A stretch of 64,000 nt of DNA. Source: Patescibacteria group bacterium (GTDB lineage: Bacteria; Patescibacteriota; Patescibacteriia; Patescibacteriales; WJLG01). Positions 2,571 to 63,520 of the stretch are shown one piece after another. Every line of letters starts with the position of its first letter. Positions within the stretch are counted from its first letter, which is position 1. The position numbers and the translations under genes are program-made. The DNA lies in contig JAQTUZ010000001.1 of assembly GCA_028707065.1 (NCBI GenBank), positions 1,551 to 65,550 on the forward strand. Reading direction: 5' to 3'. The notes beneath the pieces were generated by a model. It had not been told where the DNA came from. It saw nothing but the letters and a program-made list of their open reading frames with translations, and searched no databases.

Positions 2571-4025
2571 ATGACTTTAAAAAAATCTGCAAAAATTGGC
2601 GGCAACAAAGCAAGACCTGGAAAAAATTCCACTTTAAACTGCCAACCGGATAATCTTAGCCGCGGATCGGTTAAAATGGGTTTGATGCTTGCTCTCGTGA
2701 TCATCGCCGTCGTTTTGGCGTTCGCGGCCGCGGCTTATTATCTGTATCCGCAGTTAGCCGGCATTAAAAAACCGGCGGCGGAAAAAAATGCCGCCACCTC
2801 GACTCCGGTCACCATCACCTATATCTCCAATCAGCCTCTGGTCGATCCTACCGACGCGGCAATCATTAACCTGGATAATATTATCGCCGATTTCACCAAA
2901 CAAACCGGCATCAAAGTCAACCGGATCAAGCCGCCGCAAGCGGTGGAAAATTATTCCGACATCAGCATCTATTTGCGGGATATTCTCCGCTCGGATCAGT
3001 CCAAGTTCGACGTCACGATGGTTGATGGCCCGTGGACCGGCATGTTCGCGCCTTATATGCTTGAGCTTACTCCGTATTTTAAAAATCGGCTGACGGAATT
3101 TTTTCCTGAATTGATCGCCAACGGCATGGTTGACGGGAAATTGATCGCCATACCGTATTTCCAGGACATGACCGTTTTGTTTTACCGTACCGATCTCTTG
3201 AAAAAATACGGCTATGCCAATCCGCCGCAGACCTGGGATGAATTGGAACAAATGGCCAAAGTGATCCAGACCGGCGAAAGAAAAATCCACGATAATTTTT
3301 GGGGCTATGTCTGGGCGGCCGATGAAAGCGAATCTTTGACTTGCACCGCCCTCGGGCTGCAGGCTTCCTATGGCGGCGGAACCATCATCGATAACGGAGT
3401 GATCACGGTTGACAATCCCCGCACCGCCCAAGCTCTGGAAAAAGCCATTGGCTGGATCGGAACAATTTCTCCGCCCAATATTTTAAAGTCCACCGAAGAC
3501 GACATCATCATGGCCTGGGATATCGGCAACGCGGCCTTTATGCAAAACTGGCCCGATTCTTACCAGATCAGCGAAGAGTCCATAATCAACGGCGAATACC
3601 AAATAACCGCTCTGCCTTCGGGCGGCTTCAAGCATTCCGGAGTCTATGGCGGAGAATATCTGGGCATTGACAAGCGCACGGCGCATCCTCGCGAGGCGGC
3701 GATGTTTTTGCAATATATGACCAGCCCGGAGGTGCAAAAAAAGCGGGCCATGGAAGATGTTTGGTCGCCGGTTCTTCTGGCCTTATATTCCGATCCTGAT
3801 CTGGCCAAAGCGCAGCCGGTCTATAATTACATAAGTTCGGCAATTTTTGCCCAAGGAGTGGAGCGCCCCGGATCGCAGATCAAAAATATCTACGATAGCG
3901 TGGCATCCGCATACTTTACCAATATCCACGCGATCCTGGCCAAAAAGGTCAGCATCAAAAACGGGCTGAAAGAATTGGAAACGGAATTGATCAATCTTAC
4001 CGGCTTGCCGGCGAGCAATGATTAA
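2571..4025 (+). CDS. ABC transporter substrate-binding protein, family 1 (sugar/maltodextrin-type), membrane-anchored
   Basis: 484 aa with an N-terminal TM segment; carries the PYFQDMTVLFYRTDLL and WGY.W motifs typical of SBP family 1. The true start may be the internal Met near 2676. Confidence 0.8.
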   Translation: MTLKKSAKIGGNKARPGKNSTLNCQPDNLSRGSVKMGLMLALVIIAVVLAFAAAAYYLYPQLAGIKKPAAEKNAATSTPVTITYISNQPLVDPTDAAIINLDNIIADFTKQTGIKVNRIKPPQAVENYSDISIYLRDILRSDQSKFDVTMVDGPWTGMFAPYMLELTPYFKNRLTEFFPELIANGMVDGKLIAIPYFQDMTVLFYRTDLLKKYGYANPPQTWDELEQMAKVIQTGERKIHDNFWGYVWAADESESLTCTALGLQASYGGGTIIDNGVITVDNPRTAQALEKAIGWIGTISPPNILKSTEDDIIMAWDIGNAAFMQNWPDSYQISEESIINGEYQITALPSGGFKHSGVYGGEYLGIDKRTAHPREAAMFLQYMTSPEVQKKRAMEDVWSPVLLALYSDPDLAKAQPVYNYISSAIFAQGVERPGSQIKNIYDSVASAYFTNIHAILAKKVSIKNGLKELETELINLTGLPASND

Positions 4026-5460
4026 TTTGCTCCCGAAAAATAAATTAAAATATTCAATCAAGAAAATCATGAACAACAAAATAAAAAATTTCAATCAGCC
4101 GCCAAGTAAAAAAAATTCGCTTGGGCCGATCATTATCGCGCTGATCATTGTTGTTTTGGCGGCAACCGCTTATTTTCTTTATCCCCAATTATTCGGCCAT
4201 AAAAAATCAGCTCAAGAAAATCATATCACTCCCGCCGCCCCGGTCACCATTACTTATATCTCCAATCAGCCGTTGGTCGATGCCGGCGATGGCGCGGTTA
4301 ATCGCTTAAATAATATTATCAACACCTTCACCAAGCAGACGGGAATTAACGTGGAAAGGGTCATCCCGCCGCAATCGGTCGTAACCTATTCGGACATCGG
4401 CCTGTATTTGAAAGATACTTTGAAATCCGGCCAGTCAGTTTTTGACATAACCATGGTTGATGGCCCCTGGACCGGCATGTTCGCCCCCTATCTGCTTGAT
4501 CTGACGCCATATTTCAAAGATCGGTTAAAAGATTTTTTTCCTGACTTGATCGCCAATGCCACGGTAGACGAAAGATTAGTGGCCATGCCGTATTTTCAAG
4601 ACATGACGGTTTTATTTTACCGCACTGATCTTTTGGAAAAATACGGTTACGAAAATCCGCCGCAAACCTGGGATGAATTGGAGCAAATGGCCAAAGTGAT
4701 CCAATCGGGCGAAAGAAAAACTAATTCCAAATTTTGGGGGTATGTCTGGGCGGCCAACGAAAGCGAATCTTTGACCTGCACCGCGCTCGGGCTGCAAGCT
4801 TCTTATGGCGGCGGCACTATCATTGATAACGGCAAAATAACGGTTAACAATCCCGAGGCAATAAAAGCTTTCACCAAGGCAACCGGCTGGATCGGAACCA
4901 TTTCTCCGGTAAGCGTTTTACAATCATCCGAAAGCGATATTTTGACGACTTGGCAAAATGGCAACGCGGCTTTTATGCAAAGCTGGCCGGGCTCTTTCGC
5001 CATGGGCGCTAATTCCGTGATTAGCGGCGACTACCAAATAACCGCCCTGCCTTCGGGCGGCTTCAAGCATTCCGGAGTCTATGGCGGAGAATATCTGGGC
5101 ATTGATAAGCGCACCGCGCACCCCAAGGAAGCCGCGATGTTTTTACAATATCTTTCCAGCCCGGCCGTGCAAAAAGAGCGAGCCAGGGAAGATCTCTGGT
5201 CGCCGGTTCTTCCGGCCCTGTATTCCGATCCTGATCTGGCCAAAGCGCAGCCGGTCTATGAATTTATCAGTTCGGATATTTTTTCCCAAGGCGTAGCTCG
5301 TCCCGGCTCTCAAGCGGGAAATGTTTACGATCAATTGGCAAACGCTTATTTCTCCGATATCCACGCGATCTTAGCCAAGCAAATCAGCGCCCCGGCCGGA
5401 CTCGCGAAATTGGAATCGCAACTGCATGAAATTACCGGATTGCCGATCGCCACAAAATAA
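4018..5460 (+). CDS. ABC transporter substrate-binding protein, family 1; tandem paralog of the previous gene
   Basis: 480 aa, roughly 65-70% identical to the upstream SBP (tandem duplication); no permease or ATPase genes are adjacent. Confidence 0.8.
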   Translation: MINLLPKNKLKYSIKKIMNNKIKNFNQPPSKKNSLGPIIIALIIVVLAATAYFLYPQLFGHKKSAQENHITPAAPVTITYISNQPLVDAGDGAVNRLNNIINTFTKQTGINVERVIPPQSVVTYSDIGLYLKDTLKSGQSVFDITMVDGPWTGMFAPYLLDLTPYFKDRLKDFFPDLIANATVDERLVAMPYFQDMTVLFYRTDLLEKYGYENPPQTWDELEQMAKVIQSGERKTNSKFWGYVWAANESESLTCTALGLQASYGGGTIIDNGKITVNNPEAIKAFTKATGWIGTISPVSVLQSSESDILTTWQNGNAAFMQSWPGSFAMGANSVISGDYQITALPSGGFKHSGVYGGEYLGIDKRTAHPKEAAMFLQYLSSPAVQKERAREDLWSPVLPALYSDPDLAKAQPVYEFISSDIFSQGVARPGSQAGNVYDQLANAYFSDIHAILAKQISAPAGLAKLESQLHEITGLPIATK

Positions 5461-10671: not shown

Positions 10672-10708
10672 TTGGCTCTGGCAGAGTCTCGCATCAGCGG
10701 ACTCTGCC
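10672..10708. repeat. Repeat family 2, copy a: 37-bp hairpin element TGGCTCYGGCAGAGTCTCGC-NNN-AGCGGACTCTGCC
   Basis: 9-bp inverted repeat GGCAGAGTC/GACTCTGCC; other copies at 11476..11512 and 34694..34729. Confidence 0.8.
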
Positions 10709-10722
10709 ACTGACTTCAAAAT

Positions 10723-11475: not shown

Positions 11476-11512
11476 TTGGCTCCGGCAGAGTCTCGCGCCA
11501 GCGGACTCTGCC
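11476..11512. repeat. Repeat family 2, copy b
   Basis: Same 37-bp hairpin element in the same orientation as copy a, on the other side of the GT2 gene. Confidence 0.8.
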
Positions 11513-11536
11513 GCCGAAAACGACTGCTATCCCGGA

Positions 11537-12151: not shown

Positions 12152-12299
12152 GATTTTATTTCGGTTATCGTAAAAAGATCACCTGTTCAGTAAACAAATT
12201 TGTATAAAATAGATCCTTCTCCGCCCGGGGCGGATCAGGATGACAAAAAACTGGAAAGCGCAACAACTAAGTACCTAATCAACTAATTGACTAATAGAC

Positions 12300-15544: not shown

Positions 15545-15551
15545 AAAAAAA

Positions 15552-15662
15552 TATAATCCGAATACTACAAATTATATCCGAATACTACGAACTCCACGAA
15601 CCGAACAAATTTTCGTTAAAATGTTCGTGGTATTCGGATATTTCGTAGGTTCGGATTATAAA
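15552..15662. mobile_element. Repeat family 3, copy A: ~110-bp MITE-like element with terminal inverted repeats (ATAATCCGAATACTAC ... GTAGGTTCGGATTAT) and internal CGAATACTACGAAC/GTTCGTGGTATTCG arms
   Basis: Sits between infC and rpmI and ends 7 nt from the rpmI start codon; related copies at 23878..23979, 42369..42493, 48414..48536 and 49058..49112. Confidence 0.75.
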
Positions 15663-31295: not shown

Positions 31296-31437
31296 TTTTG
31301 TCATCCCGCCCCATTGTCATTGCGAGCGCCGCGCGAAGCAATCTCGCCCCTGGCGGAAAAACACTTCGCTATCGCGAGACGCGGGATTGCTTCGTCGTCC
31401 GCCCAAGGCGGACTCCTCGCAATGACAAAAATAAAAG
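31296..31437. repeat. Repeat family 4, variant copy: TIR element TGTCATTGCGAGCGCCGCGCGAAGCAATC ... GATTGCTTCGTC..CTCGCAATGACA
   Basis: Same architecture as the TGTCATCCTGAGCG copies, but with compensatory substitutions in both stem halves. Confidence 0.75.
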
Positions 31438-32152: not shown

Positions 32153-32313
32153 ACATCCTCCTTTGCCGCCTCATTGCCAAAATCCGCCCAAAGCGGACCG
32201 GCGCCGACTTAGCATTGGTTAAGGTTGAAAAAGTGCCTTTTTGCGGTCATTTAACCGCAAAAAACATAACCCGATATTAGCACAAAATTATTTTCCTGTC
32301 AACCTCACCTCAT

Positions 32314-32494
32314 TTGTCATCCTGAGCGCCGCGCGAAGGATCTATTATAGGAGATGCTTCTAAAAACATCAGCAAACATTAGAACGAACAAGTAAAAAAT
32401 ATCATCGATAAAAAAATTGGCAGTAGTAATTCAAGTTTTGCCTAGAATAGATCCTTCGTCGTCAGCCGAGGCGGCCTCCTCCTCAGGATGACAA
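32314..32494. mobile_element. Repeat family 4, copy 1: 181-bp MITE-like element with ~30-bp TIRs (TTGTCATCCTGAGCGCCGCGCGAAGGATCTATT / AATAGATCCTTCG..CTCAGGATGACAA)
   Basis: Near-perfect terminal inverted repeats with an AT-rich core; lies immediately downstream of the recQ stop. Confidence 0.8.
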
Positions 32495-32508
32495 AAAAAT
32501 GTTGTCTG

Positions 32509-34755
32509 CTACTTGTTACCTGATACCTGTTTGAATTTCGCCCGCGCAATTTTAATTTCTTCCCAAGAATAATCATCGCCAAGTTCGTCTTTGATCGGCG
32601 TCAGTTTTTCAAAGCCGACTTTTTTAATGGCGGCGAAAATCTTGTCCTGTTTTTTAGAACTCACCAATTTATCGATGTCTTTTATCAAGCCTTTTTCAAT
32701 TAAAAATACTAAGTGGTTATAAATCGTTTCAACGGTGAAGCCGCGCGCGCCGGCGATCCCGGCCGGATTGTAATTCTTGTTGAACAATTCCAAAGTTTCC
32801 AATTGCGTCAATTTGGTATTCAAAGTTTTCTTCTCCACCTTTATTTCTCCAAAATCCACCTTTAACACACCCCGGCGCTCCGAGACGTCGCGCCACCCCT
32901 CTCGAGAGGGGACTTTTTTAAAATCTTTTCGTGCGTAGCGATTCCCCTCTGGAGAGGGGTGGCTCGCGCCTCGCGAGACGGGGTGTGTGACGTCCGAAGC
33001 TCCGCCCAAACAATTATCGCACTTGCCGCAGTGTTCAACGTCGTATTCGCCGAAGTAATTCAGAATATATTCCGGACGGCAACTGAAATGATAGACATAA
33101 TCTTCCATCTCGTCTAATTTACTGTAAGCCCGGGCGGCTTTTTCGCGCATCGCCGAAAAATCTATCTTGACTTCGGATCGCGGAACGCGTTTCAAAATTT
33201 GGATTTCCGTACCGCGCTTAGGCGGATTATATTCGACCAGCTCGGCTTTTTTCCAGGCATTAATCGAGCGCACCAAAGCTTCGCGGCCGACTTCGATAGT
33301 TCCGGCCACTTCATCCAGATCAAATTCCCAGCCCTCGAACAACTCGGTGGCAAACCGCGCGTTCAATTTATTCAAGATTTCCACCTGCTTCTTGGCTTGT
33401 TTGGAAACAAAATCCAAAGTCGTCTGATGATTATTGATCATCCTTAAAAATGCCGGCGAAGTTTTTTCGCTCGAGCGGGCGATATAACCTTCTTTTTCCA
33501 GAATTTTCAAACAGGTGCCGACGGCCATGTCCGGGACTTTGTCCGACAAATTTTCCATCAGCTCGGCATAAGTCGTAAAAATCCGGTCGGTTTCATAGTT
33601 AGTCAAAACTTCGTAAATTTCCAGAACTGTTTCCGGCGCCGGGTTATCGCCCTTGATAAAAAATTCCCGCAAGAACCGATCCTTGGGCGCAAAAAATAAA
33701 AGACAAAGCGAAGGCGCGCCATCGCGACCGGCCCGGCCGGCCTCCTGATAATAGGCCTCGATCGTCCCCGGCATATCGTGATGAATCACGAAGCGCACGT
33801 CTTTTTTATCAATCCCTAAGCCGAAAGCGTTGGTGGCAACGATTATTTTAGTTTTGCCTTTCAGAAAATTTTCCTGCGTCCAAGAACGGCTTTCCGGATC
33901 CATCCCGGCGTGATAAAAAACCGCTTCCAAACCGCGCTCTAGTAATACGTCGGTAACTTCTTCAGCTTTGGCGCGCGTGCCGGTGTAAATTATCCCACAG
34001 CCTTCGACGCTTTCGGCCGCGTCAGCGATCAGCGATAATTTTTGCGCGTCCGGCGCTTTGATCACGCCGAATTGCAGATTCGGCCGGGTAAAGCCGGTGA
34101 TTATTTTTTTCACCCCAGTCATATTTAGCTGCTTCACAATATCCTCTTTTACTTCAGGTGTAGCTGTAGCTGTAAGCGCAACTATGGGAGGGTGACCGCA
34201 AAGTTCGATCGCTCTGCCCAATCTCATATAGCTGGGCCGGAAATCATGACCCCATTGCGAAATGCAATGCGCTTCGTCCACTGCGAATAATTTCACTTTC
34301 AACTGAGCAAGCTGTGAAACAAATTCATCATTATAAAATCTTTCCGGTGCGATATATAAAAGTTTATAAAATTCTTTTTTGACCAACTCCAACCTCTCTT
34401 TGGCCTCGTCGGGCGAGATCGAAGAATTGATGAAAGTCGCGGGCACGCCGATCTTATTCATCGAATCAACCTGATCTTTCATCAAGGCGATCAGCGGCGA
34501 AACCACGATTGCCACGCCGTCCAATACCAAAGCCGGCAATTGAAAAATCAAAGACTTGCCGCCGCCGGTCGGCATCACGACTAAAACGTCTTTGCCGTCC
34601 AAGATGGCGTCGATCGCTTCTTCCTGCCCGGGCCTAAATTTATCAAAACCATAATGGATTTTGAGCAATTCGACCGCCTGCTTCTTTTTTTGACTGGCTC
34701 CGGCAGAGTCTCGCGTAGCGGACTCTGCCGTTAAATTCGTATTTTCGGTATTCAT
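32509..34755 (-). CDS. recQ: ATP-dependent DNA helicase RecQ family with in-frame repeat-element insertions
   Basis: Helicase motifs (VVMPTGGGKS, DEAH) and a zinc-binding CGKCDNC. Family-7 elements at 32862..32911 and 32944..32989 and a family-2 hairpin at 34694..34729 are in-frame without stop codons. The true N-terminus is uncertain. Confidence 0.85.
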   Translation of the reverse strand: MNTENTNLTAESATRDSAGASQKKKQAVELLKIHYGFDKFRPGQEEAIDAILDGKDVLVVMPTGGGKSLIFQLPALVLDGVAIVVSPLIALMKDQVDSMNKIGVPATFINSSISPDEAKERLELVKKEFYKLLYIAPERFYNDEFVSQLAQLKVKLFAVDEAHCISQWGHDFRPSYMRLGRAIELCGHPPIVALTATATPEVKEDIVKQLNMTGVKKIITGFTRPNLQFGVIKAPDAQKLSLIADAAESVEGCGIIYTGTRAKAEEVTDVLLERGLEAVFYHAGMDPESRSWTQENFLKGKTKIIVATNAFGLGIDKKDVRFVIHHDMPGTIEAYYQEAGRAGRDGAPSLCLLFFAPKDRFLREFFIKGDNPAPETVLEIYEVLTNYETDRIFTTYAELMENLSDKVPDMAVGTCLKILEKEGYIARSSEKTSPAFLRMINNHQTTLDFVSKQAKKQVEILNKLNARFATELFEGWEFDLDEVAGTIEVGREALVRSINAWKKAELVEYNPPKRGTEIQILKRVPRSEVKIDFSAMREKAARAYSKLDEMEDYVYHFSCRPEYILNYFGEYDVEHCGKCDNCLGGASDVTHPVSRGASHPSPEGNRYARKDFKKVPSREGWRDVSERRGVLKVDFGEIKVEKKTLNTKLTQLETLELFNKNYNPAGIAGARGFTVETIYNHLVFLIEKGLIKDIDKLVSSKKQDKIFAAIKKVGFEKLTPIKDELGDDYSWEEIKIARAKFKQVSGNK
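32862..32989. repeat. Repeat family 7, copies ii and iii (inverted relative to each other) inside recQ coding sequence
   Basis: TTAACACACCCCG..CCACCCCTCTCGAGAGGGGA at 32862..32911 and its reverse-orientation relative at 32944..32989. They encode KKVPSREGWRDVSERRGVLK and DVTHPVSRGASHPSPEGN in the RecQ frame. Confidence 0.8.
34694..34729. repeat. Repeat family 2, copy c (37-bp hairpin) within the annotated recQ N-terminus
   Basis: CTGGCTCCGGCAGAGTCTCGCGTAGCGGACTCTGCC. Confidence 0.8.
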
Positions 34756-34828
34756 CTAATTCATCTTATAAAAAATACCGGCTATGCGCAAGCCGGGAAA
34801 TGTTTCATAAAAATAAGTGGTTCTTGTT

Positions 34829-34980
34829 TTGTCATCCTGCCTGCCCGGCCAGGGAGCGCGTCGCGAAGGATCTATTACACGCGAAGCGCGAACATCGTTG
34901 ACAAAAATTTTTATCGTATTGATATGGGCCTCATGAGTAATAGATCCTTCACTCCGCTCCGCTGCGTTCAGGATGACAAA
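34829..34980. mobile_element. Repeat family 4, copy 2 (152 bp) between recQ and the GIY-YIG gene
   Basis: TIRs TTGTCATCCTG..CGAAGGATCTATTA / TAATAGATCCTTC..CAGGATGACAA; the right TIR supplies the last codons of the GIY-YIG ORF. Confidence 0.8.
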
Positions 34981-42361: not shown

Positions 42362-42368
42362 AAAAATA

Positions 42369-42493
42369 ATATAATCTGAATACTACAAATTGTATCCGAA
42401 TTCTACGAACTCTACAAATCGAAAAATTTTCCGTAAAAAACGTTCGTAGTATTCGGTCCGCCAGCTGGCGGATTTCGTAGGTTCGGATTATAT
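42369..42493. mobile_element. Repeat family 3, copy C
   Basis: TIRs ATAATCTGAATACTACAAATT ... TTTCGTAGGTTCGGATTATAT; ends 8 nt upstream of the terC start. Confidence 0.75.
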
Positions 42494-44750: not shown

Positions 44751-46559
44751 TCAATTCTGCCCATTTTTTTTAACCATATATCCTTCTTCAAGGCGATAGC
44801 CGAGCTTTTTATAATAACCGCGCGTGCCGATCCCGGCGATAACCGCAATTTGATTAAAATTATTCTGTCGGGCGATCTTTTCCGCTTCGGCCAAAAGTTT
44901 TCTTCCCAATCCGCCGTGCTGGATTCCCCCCTCCTTTTCAAGGAGGGGTTTGGGGGTGGTTCTCCCGCCGACCGGCACCAGCTCGCCATACACATGCAAC
45001 TCTCTAACTATTGCCGAATTATTTAAAAAAGAATATTTTTCATCCGCTATCTTTTTGTCATCCTGAGCGCCGCGCGAAGGATCTATTGTCCGAGAAATTT
45101 TCAATTTCGCAATAAAAAATTTTGATTGAATAAAATCGGCGTTCTTACAAAATAGATCCTTCGTCAGGGACTCAGGATGACAAAGAAACGGAAGGCGTAA
45201 ACGGCAAAAACCGTAAAGCGTTTTCCCGTCTTGTGAATCAAAAGAAATGAAATATTCCTGTCCGCCCGACGCGGGATATTCTTGAATATTCAATTTCAAC
45301 TTTCCAGCTTTAATAGTTTTATCTTTAACTTCGCGGCAGCGGATGCAGCGGCAGCGCGCGCCTTCCTGCTGCATAACCTGGCGCAGATTAGTGATCGTGT
45401 TTCCCGCTTCGATCGATTCGCCGGGAATATCGCGGATCAATCTGATAATCCGGACATATTCGGGCACTGCTTTTTTGCAATCGATAATTAGCTGACGCAA
45501 AACTTTATCGGAGTACGGGCGATATTTGCCAGCCTTCCACCATCGATAAAGTTTTGAACCCTTAGTCACGACTGTCGGATAAAATTTTATCTGGTCCGGC
45601 TGGAAGCGCTCGTCAGAAAATGATTGCTTGAACATCGCCAGATCTTTTTTAGCCGTCGCGCCGGGCAAGCCCGGCATCAGATGATACGTGACTTTGAACC
45701 CAAAATTTTTCAGCAGTTCGGTCGCGCGGACAATTTCGGCCACGCCGTGACCGCGATTATTTTTCGCCAAAATTTTATCATCGACCGCCTGCACGCCCAA
45801 CTCGACCCGCGTCGCGCCCAGCTCGCGCATTTCGATCAATTCTTTCTCATCAATATAATCGGGCCTCGTCTCCAAAGTAATACCGATAATCTTATATTTT
45901 GCTTTTTCGTTTTTCTTCTGCTCGGAAAATAATTGCTTTTTAGTTTCTTCCAGCTTTAACACACCCCGTCTTGCGCGGCGCAAGCCACCCCTCTCGAGAG
46001 GGGACTTCTTATTTAATGCCCCGTCGCAGTCTCCGCCGCGGGACTGCGACGAAAACTCATTTGCCGCGCGGAAGCATTCTTTGATAAACCAAAATTTATA
46101 AGCGCGGGGCAAGACGCTCCAAGTTCCGCCGATCACGATCAGTTCGATCTTTTCCGGGCGATGGCCATTGATCTCCAAAGCTTCCAAGCGCGTCCGCACC
46201 TGCTCGTACGGATCATATTTATTACGGATCGCCCGCATCACGGCCGGCTCGTTAGACAAATAACTTTTTGGCACGTTTTTTTCCGTGGGGCAAAACGCGC
46301 ACTTGCCCGGACATTTCCAAGGCTTGGTCAAAACCGCCACCGGCGCCACGCCGGAAAGCGTGCGCACGGCGCGCCGCTTTAACAGCCGCGCGAATTTTTC
46401 ATCGAATTTAACCCGGCCGCTTTTTACCAAAAGCAAATACTCCCGCCACAGTTCCGAATGCCGGGGAAGTTCTTCACCTTTTTTGACCAATTTCCGCTTC
46501 AGGGCCATCAATTCTGCGGCGGTTTTTGGTTTTTGCTTAATAATTTCACCGATCATCAT
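44751..46559 (-). CDS. Elp3-family radical SAM/GNAT protein (tRNA wobble-uridine modification homolog) carrying two in-frame repeat-element insertions
   Basis: CPGKCAFCP radical-SAM cysteine cluster. The C-terminal GNAT region (FCRLRLP..VRELHVYG..QHGGLGRKLL.EAEKIAR) resembles Elp3. Element copies at 45055..45183 and 45956..46004 sit in-frame. Confidence 0.75.
   Translation of the reverse strand: MMIGEIIKQKPKTAAELMALKRKLVKKGEELPRHSELWREYLLLVKSGRVKFDEKFARLLKRRAVRTLSGVAPVAVLTKPWKCPGKCAFCPTEKNVPKSYLSNEPAVMRAIRNKYDPYEQVRTRLEALEINGHRPEKIELIVIGGTWSVLPRAYKFWFIKECFRAANEFSSQSRGGDCDGALNKKSPLERGGLRRARRGVLKLEETKKQLFSEQKKNEKAKYKIIGITLETRPDYIDEKELIEMRELGATRVELGVQAVDDKILAKNNRGHGVAEIVRATELLKNFGFKVTYHLMPGLPGATAKKDLAMFKQSFSDERFQPDQIKFYPTVVTKGSKLYRWWKAGKYRPYSDKVLRQLIIDCKKAVPEYVRIIRLIRDIPGESIEAGNTITNLRQVMQQEGARCRCIRCREVKDKTIKAGKLKLNIQEYPASGGQEYFISFDSQDGKTLYGFCRLRLPFLCHPESLTKDLFCKNADFIQSKFFIAKLKISRTIDPSRGAQDDKKIADEKYSFLNNSAIVRELHVYGELVPVGGRTTPKPLLEKEGGIQHGGLGRKLLAEAEKIARQNNFNQIAVIAGIGTRGYYKKLGYRLEEGYMVKKNGQN
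45055..45183. mobile_element. Repeat family 4, copy 3, inserted in-frame in the GNAT domain of the Elp3-like gene
   Basis: TIRs TTGTCATCCTGAGCG.../...CTCAGGATGACAA; translated on the minus strand as LCHPESLTKDLFCKNADFIQSKFFIAKLKISRTIDPSRGAQDDK with no stop. Confidence 0.8.
45956..46004. repeat. Repeat family 7, copy iv, in-frame in the radical-SAM domain of the Elp3-like gene
   Basis: TTAACACACCCCGTCTTGCGCGGCGCAAGCCACCCCTCTCGAGAGGGGA encodes KSPLERGGLRRARRGVLK. Confidence 0.8.
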
Positions 46560-47968: not shown

Positions 47969-48346
47969 ATGTTAGACAAAAAAATCAAAGAAAAGATCAT
48001 CAAAAAGTTTCAGGAACATGCCAACGATACCGGTTCGCCGCAAGTGCAGATCGCCATTTTGACCGAAGAGATCAAACAATTGACCAAGCATTTGCAGGAA
48101 CACCGCAAAGATTTCTCTTCCCGCCGCGGTTTATTGAAGAAAGTCAGTGAACGCCGAAAACTTTTGAAATATCTGCAGAAAGAGAATGAAAAAGCTTTCA
48201 AGGACGTGGCGGAAAAATTAAAGTTGAAGATCGCCAAAAAAATGGAAGACGATAAAGAAAGGGAAGATGAACTGGCTCGCCTGGCCGAAGAAGGCCACGA
48301 GGAAGACCTGTTGAACGAAGCCGAGATCGCCGAAAAAAACGAATAG
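47969..48346 (+). CDS. rpsO: 30S ribosomal protein S15 with an acidic C-terminal extension
   Basis: [16 protein letters not shown]...[25 protein letters not shown] matches S15; an extra ~35-aa Glu/Asp-rich tail follows. Confidence 0.85.
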
Positions 48347-48413
48347 TTTTTATAATATAGGCCCAGCTTTTGGGTCTATATTTGTTAAGAGGCTTTTTAC
48401 AAATTTTCAAGTC

Positions 48414-48536
48414 AGTATATAATGCGAATACTACAAATTGTGCGCGAATACTACGAACGGATTTAACGAATTAAAAATAATTCGATAAATAATTTGCGGT
48501 ATTCGCGAATAATTCGTTGTATTCGCATCATGTCAT
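48414..48536. mobile_element. Repeat family 3, copy D
   Basis: TIRs TAATGCGAATACTACAAATT ... AATTCGTTGTATTCGCATCA; abuts the NYN gene start (6 nt). Confidence 0.75.
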
Positions 48537-49057: not shown

Positions 49058-49112
49058 ATAATGCGAACCTACGAATTGTACGCGAATACTACGAACAGTT
49101 TAACGAAGTTTA
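49058..49112. repeat. Repeat family 3, partial copy E (left-end half)
   Basis: ATAATGCGAACCTACGAATTGTACGCGAATACTACGAAC matches the left ends of copies A to D; no right TIR. Confidence 0.6.
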
Positions 49113-59561: not shown

Positions 59562-59635
59562 GGAGTGGTAGTTCAGTTGGTTAGAACGCTTCCCTGTCAC
59601 GGAAGAGGTCGCGGGTTCGAGTCCCGTCCACTCCG
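59562..59635 (+). tRNA. tRNA-Asp (GTC)
   Basis: Manual cloverleaf: acceptor GGAGTGG/CCACTCC, anticodon loop CTGTCAC, T-loop TTCGAGT. Confidence 0.9.
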
Positions 59636-59641
59636 CTCAAA

Positions 59642-59680
59642 ATAAAACAGACGGCATCAGGCCGTCTGTTTTATTTTGAG
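59642..59680 (+). terminator. Intrinsic terminator after tRNA-Asp
   Basis: AAAACAGACGGC-ATCAG-GCCGTCTGTTTT followed by T-run. Confidence 0.7.
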
Positions 59681-62547: not shown

Positions 62548-62619
62548 GTCCCCATAGTTCAACGGATAGAACGAGGATCTCCTAAGTCCTAAATCCATGT
62601 TCGATTCATGGTGGGGACA
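62548..62619 (+). tRNA. tRNA-Arg (CCT)
   Basis: Manual cloverleaf: acceptor GTCCCCA/TGGGGAC, anticodon loop CTCCTAA, T-loop TTCGATT. Confidence 0.85.
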
Positions 62620-62866
62620 CAGGGAAATTAAAAATTACAAATTAAGAATTAAAAATTTAAGGGTTAATGGTTATAACATGTAATTGTCAAGATTAAATTA
62701 CCGGACTTTAGTCCACGATATTGTGTACTAAAGTTAATGGTGATTATAAATATAGGCTAATATTAAATAAAATATATATTAATAGCTAATATTAAACAAG
62801 ATATTACGGTTTTTCAAAAAACAAACAATTTGTAATTTATAATTTTTAATTTATAATTGATTAAGA

Positions 62867-62940
<74 letters not shown>

Positions 62941-62949
62941 CATAAATTT

Positions 62950-62980
62950 TAAAAGCCTGACCTGCGTCAGGCTTTTAAAA
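62950..62980 (+). terminator. Intrinsic terminator after tRNA-Ala
   Basis: AAAAGCCTGAC-CTGC-GTCAGGCTTTT. Confidence 0.65.
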
Positions 62981-62989
62981 TTTATTCTG

Positions 62990-63520
62990 AACAAGGAGGC
63001 TTGAAAGCCGGAGCGATGCCCGAGGCGCAATTTCGGCGCCGAGGGCCGCGAGGCGGGGTCGCAACCGAGCGAGCGGAAGCGAGCAAGAGTTGTGACCAAG
63101 TCTCCTTGGGTCCACCTTCGCCCGCCAAAGCGGGCTACGGTGGACGCAGTCCACTACTCCTGCGAAGGAGGGAAAACAAAAACCGCGGTTTTCCGCGGTT
63201 TTTGCTTTGTCCAAGGAGACTTGAACTAAAGGGGTGTTAGGGGAAAGAATTTCCCCTAAGATTTGGGGGAGGTACTGGAGGGGCGGAAGTCCCTCCAGAG
63301 AGGAGCGGAAGCGACGATTCAAGTCTCCTTGGGTCCACCTTCGCCCGCCGGAGCGGGCTACGGTGGACGCAGTCCACTCGTGTCTGCGAAGGCGGGATTC
63401 GCCCGCCGGAGCGGGCTTCGGTCGCACGCCGCCATAGCTTCGGCGACGGCGCGTGGACGCAGTCCACTAAAGCCGCGAAGGAGGGAAAACAAAAACCGCG
63501 GTTTTCCGCGGTTTTTTAGT
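62990..63520. repeat. GC-rich repeat array downstream of tRNA-Ala with three or more extra copies (direct and inverted) of the tRNA-Ala 3' end (AAGTCTCCTTGGGTCCACC), two ~100-200-bp tandem units ending in the AAAACCGCGG-TTTT-CCGCGGTTTTT terminator hairpin, and a ~100-bp module shared with the tRNA-Asp locus
   Basis: Copies at 63098..63118, 63207..63225 (inverted) and 63320..63340; shared module at 63003..63114 against 59883..59997. Confidence 0.7.

Follow-up and report, generated by a model that had tools for sequence, protein, structure and literature searches.

The Elp3 gene in a 64-kb stretch of contig JAQTUZ010000001.1, from a Patescibacteria group bacterium (the whole of this stretch is called the window here), probably carries short repeat elements that were inserted in frame into loops of the protein and are translated as tolerated extra peptides, the enzyme core remaining functional. 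Four repeat-derived segments were found at three sites of the gene, all of them in frame and free of stop codons. In-frame insertion is supported by the absence of these segments from the nearest orthologues, by intergenic copies of the same elements, by the position of the segments in loops modelled with low confidence, and by independent assemblies with the same architecture. An earlier description of this DNA (the original prediction) had claimed two in-frame elements, of repeat families named 4 and 7, and had likened their survival within a gene to that of the Rickettsia palindromic elements (RPEs), here in an unrelated lineage. Both elements and the likeness are upheld by these four lines of evidence, while the count of two was too low.

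Repeat-derived segments at three sites of Elp3

The Elp3 copy of the window is abbreviated WIN; homologous proteins carry P-numbers and fetched loci L-numbers, and the coordinates of all elements are collected in Table 1. The largest segment, the family-4 element at site 2, lies between the FCRLRLP and VRELHVYG motifs. Its two arms (45054-45096 and 45142-45184) are 43 nt each and 79% complementary, they enclose an AT-rich core of 45 nt, and the RNA folds at -53.2 kcal/mol (z -6.9). The element originally placed at 45055..45183, with a length of 129 bp and 30-bp ends, is therefore real but slightly longer. The family-7 unit at site 1, predicted to lie in frame in the radical-SAM half at 45956..46004, was found there with several copies in the window; it was also detected at site 1 of P0002 and P0008 at the DNA level, and of P0006 at the peptide level. 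Site 1 holds in addition a perfect 30-bp hairpin that resembles the hairpins named D20 at 10679, 11483 and 34701. The fourth segment, a reversed family-7-like hairpin at site 3, adds 30 bp (10 codons) to the acetyl-CoA blocking loop, where P0010 has a similar insert.

A codon-level alignment of WIN and seven orthologues was used to determine where the segments are lacking. The nearest orthologues (P0003, P0005 and P0007; 78-80% identical) are without all four, which was the outcome anticipated for an alignment with orthologues, and the family-4 element is also absent from site 2 of P0010. The genome of P0005 has a family-4 unit elsewhere (L071) and none in its Elp3 (L001). Alignment to the Elp3 of Dehalococcoides mccartyi (DmcElp3) consisted of three blocks (query 63-168, 215-460 and 514-597), leaving two long unaligned stretches plus an 8-residue gap in the third block. 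Insertion is clearest at site 3: the window has ten codons more than the consensus GGC GGG AAG AAA AAA ACC CAG CAC (GGKKKTQH), and a short 8-aa loop with GGKKKT is present in 106 of 120 homologues. At site 2, the element stands between RLRLP-FL and KIADEKYSFLNN, a position taken in the relatives by about 7-10 codons from an AT-rich repeat (KLQIKNYKL); the family-4 element therefore replaced part of the loop. From RLRL to RELH, WIN has a spacing of 62 aa, most relatives have 11-26 aa and DmcElp3 has about 18 aa, in good agreement with the original figures of about 62 and about 20 aa. The attribution of this excess to family 4 is borne out by the orthologues that lack the element, but the excess is not a pure addition. 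Site 1 comprises 45 residues in the window, the modal length among homologues being 28.

Identity of the host protein and location of the inserts in its fold

A split or frameshifted gene would have undermined these observations, but the Elp3 open reading frame (ORF) is single and intact. A Pfam scan of the ORF gave matches to Radical_SAM and Radical_SAM_C and a weak GNAT match below the cutoff, and its score of 536.2 bits on the NCBIfam model TIGR01211 Elp3 (cutoff 350) places it in this family. All solved Elp3 structures matched the ORF, the PDB chains having E-values of 1e-84 to 3e-113 (best DmcElp3, 5L7J, at 3e-113), and a protein identical to WIN is already on record as the Elp3 of a Patescibacteria metagenome-assembled genome. 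The cysteines of the radical-SAM CxxxxCxxC cluster (C83, C87 and C90), the acetyl-CoA motif QHxGxG (Q547-H548-x-G550-x-G552) and the catalytic pair E520/H522 (E386/H388 in DmcElp3) are all invariant in the 120 homologues, and WIN retains the zinc cysteines C403, C405 and C408. The gene order S15, hypothetical gene, Elp3, AttH/CrtC lipocalin, TerC/DUF475 is common to the window and the orthologues. Bacterial Elp3 has been called rare (PMC6367351), as had also been stated in the original prediction. The database holds 7903 homologues at E<=1e-30, however, and the organism label on the top matches, where given, is almost always Patescibacteria or a lineage of the Candidate Phyla Radiation (CPR); judged by these homologues, Elp3 is common, not rare, in Patescibacteria.

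The AlphaFold model of WIN, built with the 120 homologues, had a mean predicted local distance difference test score (pLDDT) of 81.8 and a predicted template modelling score (pTM) of 0.85. Stretches of low pLDDT (37-64) coincided in the main with the three insert sites (aa 171-200, 461-500 and 527-546), and Foldseek comparison of the predicted core with solved Elp3 structures gave target-normalised template modelling (TM) scores of 0.80-0.89. Site 3 falls inside the acetyl-CoA blocking loop of DmcElp3 (residues 390-406; the numbering was checked via E386 and H388 in the alignment). This loop links acetyl-CoA and tRNA binding, and it can be replaced by GSGSG with acetyl-CoA binding and hydrolysis kept (PMC6367351). 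According to the model, the protein fold can accommodate inserts at these sites, which are predicted surface loops, and the inserted peptides are probably disordered. Since the invariant Fe-S, zinc and catalytic residues are kept and the core is modelled with confidence, WIN is most likely functional and its inserts floppy surface additions, whose effect on the enzyme would be near-neutral.

Recurrence of the inserts and conservation of the reading frame

The 120 Elp3 homologues were compared by peptide signature and placed on a neighbour-joining tree. Family-4-type peptides were present at site 2 in 12 homologues and at site 1 in about 14, while six had a family-7 peptide at site 1. The ends of family 4 appear in these proteins as CHPE...QDDK, as VIAR...ARNDK or, in another frame, as VILx...LRMT; family 7 appears as SPLERGG...RGVLK, and the loops also contain the AT-rich repeat as KLKIKNYELRIKN. 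The distribution of insert types on the tree is patchy, and sister sequences often differ. In P0002, the sister of WIN, site 2 is occupied by a different family-4 subfamily, with the left end in another frame and the right junction 18 nt further on, and these differences point to a separate insertion event. A 36-nt stretch with the site-1 hairpin is identical in L128, an Elp3 locus from an independent metagenome, but there occupies the opposite end of the loop and has another reading frame (RRSPAAETATG, vs SQSRGGDCDG in WIN).

The reading frame was followed in metagenome Elp3 loci fetched by DNA pattern and tblastn, not by gene calls, the 80 best-scoring of 523 being taken. Every anchor motif was present in 68 loci (60 metagenome loci, the window and seven others obtained beforehand through gene calls). 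Between the anchor motifs flanking each site, all three sites were in frame and stop-free in 68 of these 68 loci, whatever their length; one apparent frame-shifted Elp3 (L152) was dismissed as a false anchor match. Complete family-4 DNA doublets lie inside Elp3 at eight of the 68 loci, against about 1% per site expected from shuffles. The stop-free read-through that had been predicted for the family-4 copy of WIN holds in one of the six frames, the one that the gene uses; in the intergenic copies the number of open frames is 0, 2 or 3, and in the short GC-rich elements most frames are open. This pattern of frame and stop conservation is what would be predicted for a selected, translated insert, not for one that is spliced or bypassed.

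Copies elsewhere in the window and a second gene with inserts

The 34-nt end of family 4 has an exact second copy at 32313, and the family-4 11-mer TGTCATCCTGA matches the window seven times (0.4 expected). Family 7 has five matches (0.1 expected), with copies at 21517, 32896 and 32944. Four of the five family-4 elements are intergenic, though about 80% of the window is coding; only one lies within a gene, as against four of the five family-7 hairpins. The higher coding share of family 7 fits the openness of short GC-rich elements in most frames.

Three inserts, an inverted pair of family-7 units and a single hairpin, were also found in a RecQ-family helicase gene. Its inverted family-7 pair is present only in P0121 (89% identical) among the 45 homologues listed, and its D20-type hairpin near the N-terminus is absent from most homologues. 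Among the RecQ homologues, a linker of 52-102 aa is hypervariable and packed with repeats of these kinds. The phenomenon thus belongs to the genome and not to Elp3. The AT-rich repeat AATTAAGAATTACGAATTAAGAATT occurs in the window at 20045-20077, 21442-21502 and 62626-62658, in intergenic positions near tRNA or transfer-messenger RNA (tmRNA) genes. Translations of this repeat (KLKIKNYELRIKN and similar) occupy the 'empty' Elp3 sites 1 and 2 and the RecQ loops in many homologues, so that even uninserted Elp3 and RecQ loops look repeat-derived.

Table 1. Repeat elements and their host genes in the window
Feature	Position	Strand	Details
Elp3 coding sequence (radical-SAM + GNAT/KAT tRNA U34 cm5 enzyme)	44751..46559	-	602 aa, single uninterrupted ORF
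Reversed family-7-like hairpin, Elp3 site 3	44924..44960	+	ATTCCCCTCC-TTTTCAA-GGAGGGG-TTT-GGGGGTGGT, translated TTPKPLLEKEGG
Family-4 element, Elp3 site 2 (aa ~459-505)	45054..45184	-	131 bp inverted doublet: two GTCATCCTGAG...GAAGGATC stem-loops + AT-rich core
Family-7 unit, Elp3 site 1	45955..46004	-	~50 bp, GC-rich; TCCCCTCTCGAGAGGGG-TGGC-hairpin-CGGGGTGTGTTAAA, translated SPLERGGLRRARRGVLK
Perfect 30-bp hairpin, Elp3 site 1	46022..46051	-	10-bp stem, translated SQSRGGDCDG
Junction-crossing peptides of the inserts (predicted from ORF)			...RLRLPFLCHPESLTK, ...GAQDDKKIADEK, ...SPLERGGLR, ...TTPKPLLEK
RecQ-family helicase gene	32509..34755	-	
Inverted family-7 pair, in frame in RecQ gene	32855..32990	-	just after Zn motif CGKCDNCL; fold -80.9 kcal/mol, z -8.4
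D20-type hairpin, in frame near RecQ N-terminus	34701..34730	-	LTAESATRDSAGAS
Family-4 doublet, intergenic	32313..32495	.	end matches
Family-4 doublet, intergenic	34828..34980	.	end matches
Family-4 variant, intergenic	31312..31431	.	arm stem ATTGC/GCAAT, not ATCCT/AGGAT; -63 kcal/mol, z -6.95
Family-4 solo end, intergenic	12210..12250	.	
Family-7 unit, intergenic	21513..21562	+	
D20 hairpin copies, intergenic	10679-10709 and 11483-11513		

Proposed explanation and its alternatives

According to the explanation proposed here, several families of short, hairpin-forming, non-coding repeats would populate the genome, mostly between genes, and copies would have landed inside Elp3. The gene being needed, only insertions in permissive loops, in frame and without stops, would survive; these would pass through transcription and translation to give additional surface peptides, probably disordered, around a functional enzyme core. 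Family 4 would most likely move as single-stranded hairpin DNA by means of a trans-acting enzyme, in the manner of repetitive extragenic palindromic (REP) sequences and their hairpin-forming doublets (REPINs), and without a target-duplicating cut-and-paste mechanism.

Several observations weigh against this explanation. Translation of the inserts is inferred from frame conservation, and a hairpin of -53 kcal/mol in the mRNA could impede ribosomes. As the metagenome loci were the best 80 of 523, broken genes could be under-sampled. No transposase was found between family-4 ends lying 0.4-4 kb apart among at least 120 loci, a limited sample in which the intervening genes were ordinary ones, and no transposase of the RAYT type was identified in the 64 kb covered, the window proteins not all having been scanned. 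Finally, blastn showed the family-4 core of WIN (45079-45159) to be 90% identical over 81 nt, with identical junctions, to that of the P0004 Elp3 (L004 3465-3545), and these two proteins are not sisters on the tree. The flanking coding DNA is less conserved than this core, being 67-83% identical between the two (third positions 41-61%); the codon changes of the core are six nonsynonymous vs two synonymous. Such conservation, together with the nonsynonymous excess, does not fit one old insertion followed by neutral drift; a recent transfer, targeted insertion or a constraint at the DNA or RNA level may account for the shared core.

The unusual conservation of this core could also be taken to mean that the inserted peptides were co-opted and are kept by selection, tuning acetyl-CoA access at site 3 or the binding of tRNA or a partner, and site 3 does lie in the loop that links acetyl-CoA and tRNA binding (PMC6367351). 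This is quite improbable, since the distribution of the inserts is patchy and sister lineages have different ones, homologues use different frames of the same DNA, pLDDT is low in the inserts, and the core shared with P0004 has the excess of nonsynonymous changes just mentioned. A gene with four insertions in a reduced CPR genome might instead be regarded as a decaying pseudogene collecting junk, but the intact ORF, the invariant catalytic, Fe-S and zinc residues, the score far above the NCBIfam cutoff and the confident core model make this extremely unlikely.

Programmed translational bypassing occurs at GC-rich mobile inserts in yeast mitochondria and in phage T4 gene 60, and hairpins form part of known bypass signals. 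The elements might thus be present in the DNA and yet remain untranslated, being removed from the mRNA or bypassed by the ribosome, and the very stable family-4 hairpin and the strong GC stems at the other sites would suit such a process. Skipped inserts, however, need neither keep the frame nor avoid stops, as all 68 loci do; the family-4 copy is open solely in the frame used, and no Rfam intron or ribozyme match lies in the region, so that this possibility appears very unlikely. Inteins and group I or II introns were rejected, the inserts being far too small and showing no Rfam intron match and no splicing-domain motifs. As to the assembly, misjoins classically arise at repeats, and the DNA comes from a metagenome-assembled genome. 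Stitching of repeat copies into Elp3 by the assembler is nevertheless hardly credible: the same Elp3 frame continues on both flanks of each insert, and independent metagenome assemblies of other samples have the same element kinds at the same sites (L004, L006, L003, L128, L130, L136, L137 and L141). In-frame insertion with translation of tolerated peptides is hence the explanation preferred here.

Nature of the family-4 repeat

Scanning one genome per species for the exact pattern gave at least 120 loci with the family-4 end TGTCATCCTGA...GAAGGATCTATT, in more than 10 bacterial phyla; those among the matches listed include Bacteroidota, Bacillota, Pseudomonadota, Gemmatimonadota, Planctomycetota, Elusimicrobiota, Fibrobacterota, Cloacimonadota, Melainabacteria, Bdellovibrionota, Patescibacteria and others. 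Among the matches listed, about half the units have an inverted partner, forming doublets of 58-182 bp. The search pattern put no constraint on the partner arms; in these, a variable dinucleotide (CC, TC or GC) is complemented within the arm in 54 of 60 cases, whereas permuted arm pairing averaged 21 and reached 32 at most. This covariation within the arm indicates that each family-4 end is a stem-loop of its own. Target-site duplications beyond chance (direct repeats of at least 4 bp) were not found in 59 family-4 doublets, and none was visible at the Elp3 junctions in the codon-level alignment. Given the lack of target-site duplication and the separate covarying stem-loop at each end, the original label of MITE (miniature inverted-repeat transposable element) is doubtful for family 4.

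The literature searched held no published description of the family-4 element or of MITEs in CPR bacteria, and nothing relevant on palindromic in-frame repeats or on Elp3 in Patescibacteria. Rfam, which gave no RPE match, recognized only the tmRNA and tRNAs in the window at gathering thresholds. Under permissive settings, the strongest sequence-level Rfam match to full-length family 4 was RF02625 WsnRNA46 against 45039-45201 (- strand), with common ends UGUCAUCC..GAG / CUC..GGAUGACA; at 26.1 bits (gathering threshold 65.3; E 0.004-0.02), the element is not a member of that family. Two plant microRNA-precursor hairpin models scored similarly (27.2 and 21.1 bits), so the WsnRNA46 score partly reflects generic hairpin structure; the generic microRNA-hairpin matches themselves were treated as structure-only noise. 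The Wolbachia small RNA WsnRNA46 may derive from a related hairpin repeat, which is to be regarded as a lead only.

A more far-reaching proposal is that the family-4 unit (TTGTCAT-xy-TGAG...loop...GAAG-x'y'-ATC) represents an undescribed pan-bacterial class of hairpins that spreads without target duplication and with a preference for certain sites and that, together with family 7 and a family designated H, recurrently generates loop diversity in conserved Patescibacteria proteins. On this view, the core and junctions shared by WIN and P0004 would stem from targeted insertion of a homing-like kind or from gene conversion mediated by the element, and not from common descent. This proposal is speculative and, on balance, rather unlikely.

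Other features of the window

The ORF for ribosomal protein S15 (47969-48346, + strand) encodes 125 aa, of which the Pfam domain spans residues 7-87 only; a C-terminal extension of some 38 aa may represent further read-through of repeat DNA. The window contains a tmRNA gene (21065-21448, - strand) and five tRNA genes (19968-20038, 20134-20217, 59562-59635, 62548-62619 and 62867-62940), several of which are flanked by long AT-rich or GC-rich hairpins (e.g. 19717-19759, 19926-19965, 59636-59680 and 62942-62985). A 77-nt AT-rich repeat family with CGAATACTACGAA motifs lies in intergenic DNA beside genes (15545-15621, 42363-42439, 48411-48487, 49069-49101 and 23888-23920), a possible role being that of promoter or operator. 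GC-rich direct repeats, 89-97% identical, cluster around 63.0-63.5 kb (59910-59981/63031-63102, 63097-63155/63320-63378 and 63140-63203/63453-63516) and overlap a probably spurious ORF of 150 aa (62975-63427). Two adjacent paralogues at 2571-4025 and 4018-5460 (+ strand; 484 and 480 aa; 67-78% DNA identity; 1435-bp spacing) look like a tandem duplication.

Significance and comparison with known systems

Judged from the sequences compared, the phenomenon is a known one, that of RPEs and in-frame MITEs (PMC10969869), in a new lineage and with new element families. It extends the "selfish DNA inside genes" of Rickettsia to the CPR, whose tiny genomes are usually thought to be streamlined. What stands out beyond the precedent is the recurrence at three defined loops and the cross-phylum hairpin unit. 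The repeated colonization of the same permissive loops by several families provides a natural map of insertion tolerance in Elp3, its acetyl-CoA blocking loop among the sites. When CPR proteins are annotated or their structures predicted, odd loop peptides of low complexity such as CHPE...QDDK, VILS...LRMT, ...ARNDK, SPLERGG...RGVLK and KLKIKNYELRIKN would be translated repeats and not lineage-specific motifs with a function. The conservation of the family-4 hairpin unit across phyla merits a study of its own.

The closest parallel is with the RPEs (Ogata et al. 2000, as summarised in PMC10969869). As far as that summary describes them, these are likewise short palindromic repeats of several families, found in frame in unrelated conserved genes of a reduced-genome bacterium and read through as extra peptides judged to be fold-compatible. 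The present elements differ from the RPEs thus summarised in that they belong to the unrelated lineage Patescibacteria, measure 30-130 bp and have no established sequence relationship to them; moreover, the same DNA is used here in different frames and orientations, and the same three loops are recurrently targeted across many lineages. Small, multicopy elements with terminal inverted repeats that are occasionally fused in frame with host ORFs are also known among bacterial MITEs (ERIC, Coxiella QMITE1, Correia/NEMIS; PMC10969869, PMC5896051). Family 4 shares with MITEs the terminal inverted repeats, the small size and the lack of an ORF of its own; unlike classical MITEs, it has no target-site duplication, and a parent insertion sequence sharing its ends was not found.

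In anatomy, family 4 resembles a REP/REPIN doublet rather than a classical MITE. REP sequences, bacterial interspersed mosaic elements (BIMEs) and REPINs, which are mobilised by RAYT (Y1 HUH) transposases, are built from an imperfect stem-loop unit of about 26-35 nt (PMC3733652 for REP superfamilies), and family-4 units are likewise imperfect stem-loops of this size that occur solo or as inverted doublets with a variable spacer, mostly between genes and without target-site duplication. The family-4 head, however, is (T)TGTCAT and not the GTAG or CGTC of REP units (PMC3733652), and the unit is conserved in many phyla, while a REP is usually confined to one species. REPs are, moreover, extragenic by name, whereas copies of the present elements lie in frame within genes. 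The GC-rich palindromic clusters and 'byp' elements of fungal mitochondria are, like the elements described here, mobile GC-rich hairpins within protein-coding genes, but they are bypassed or lie in frame-indifferent places, whereas in Elp3 the frame and the avoidance of stops are strictly kept.

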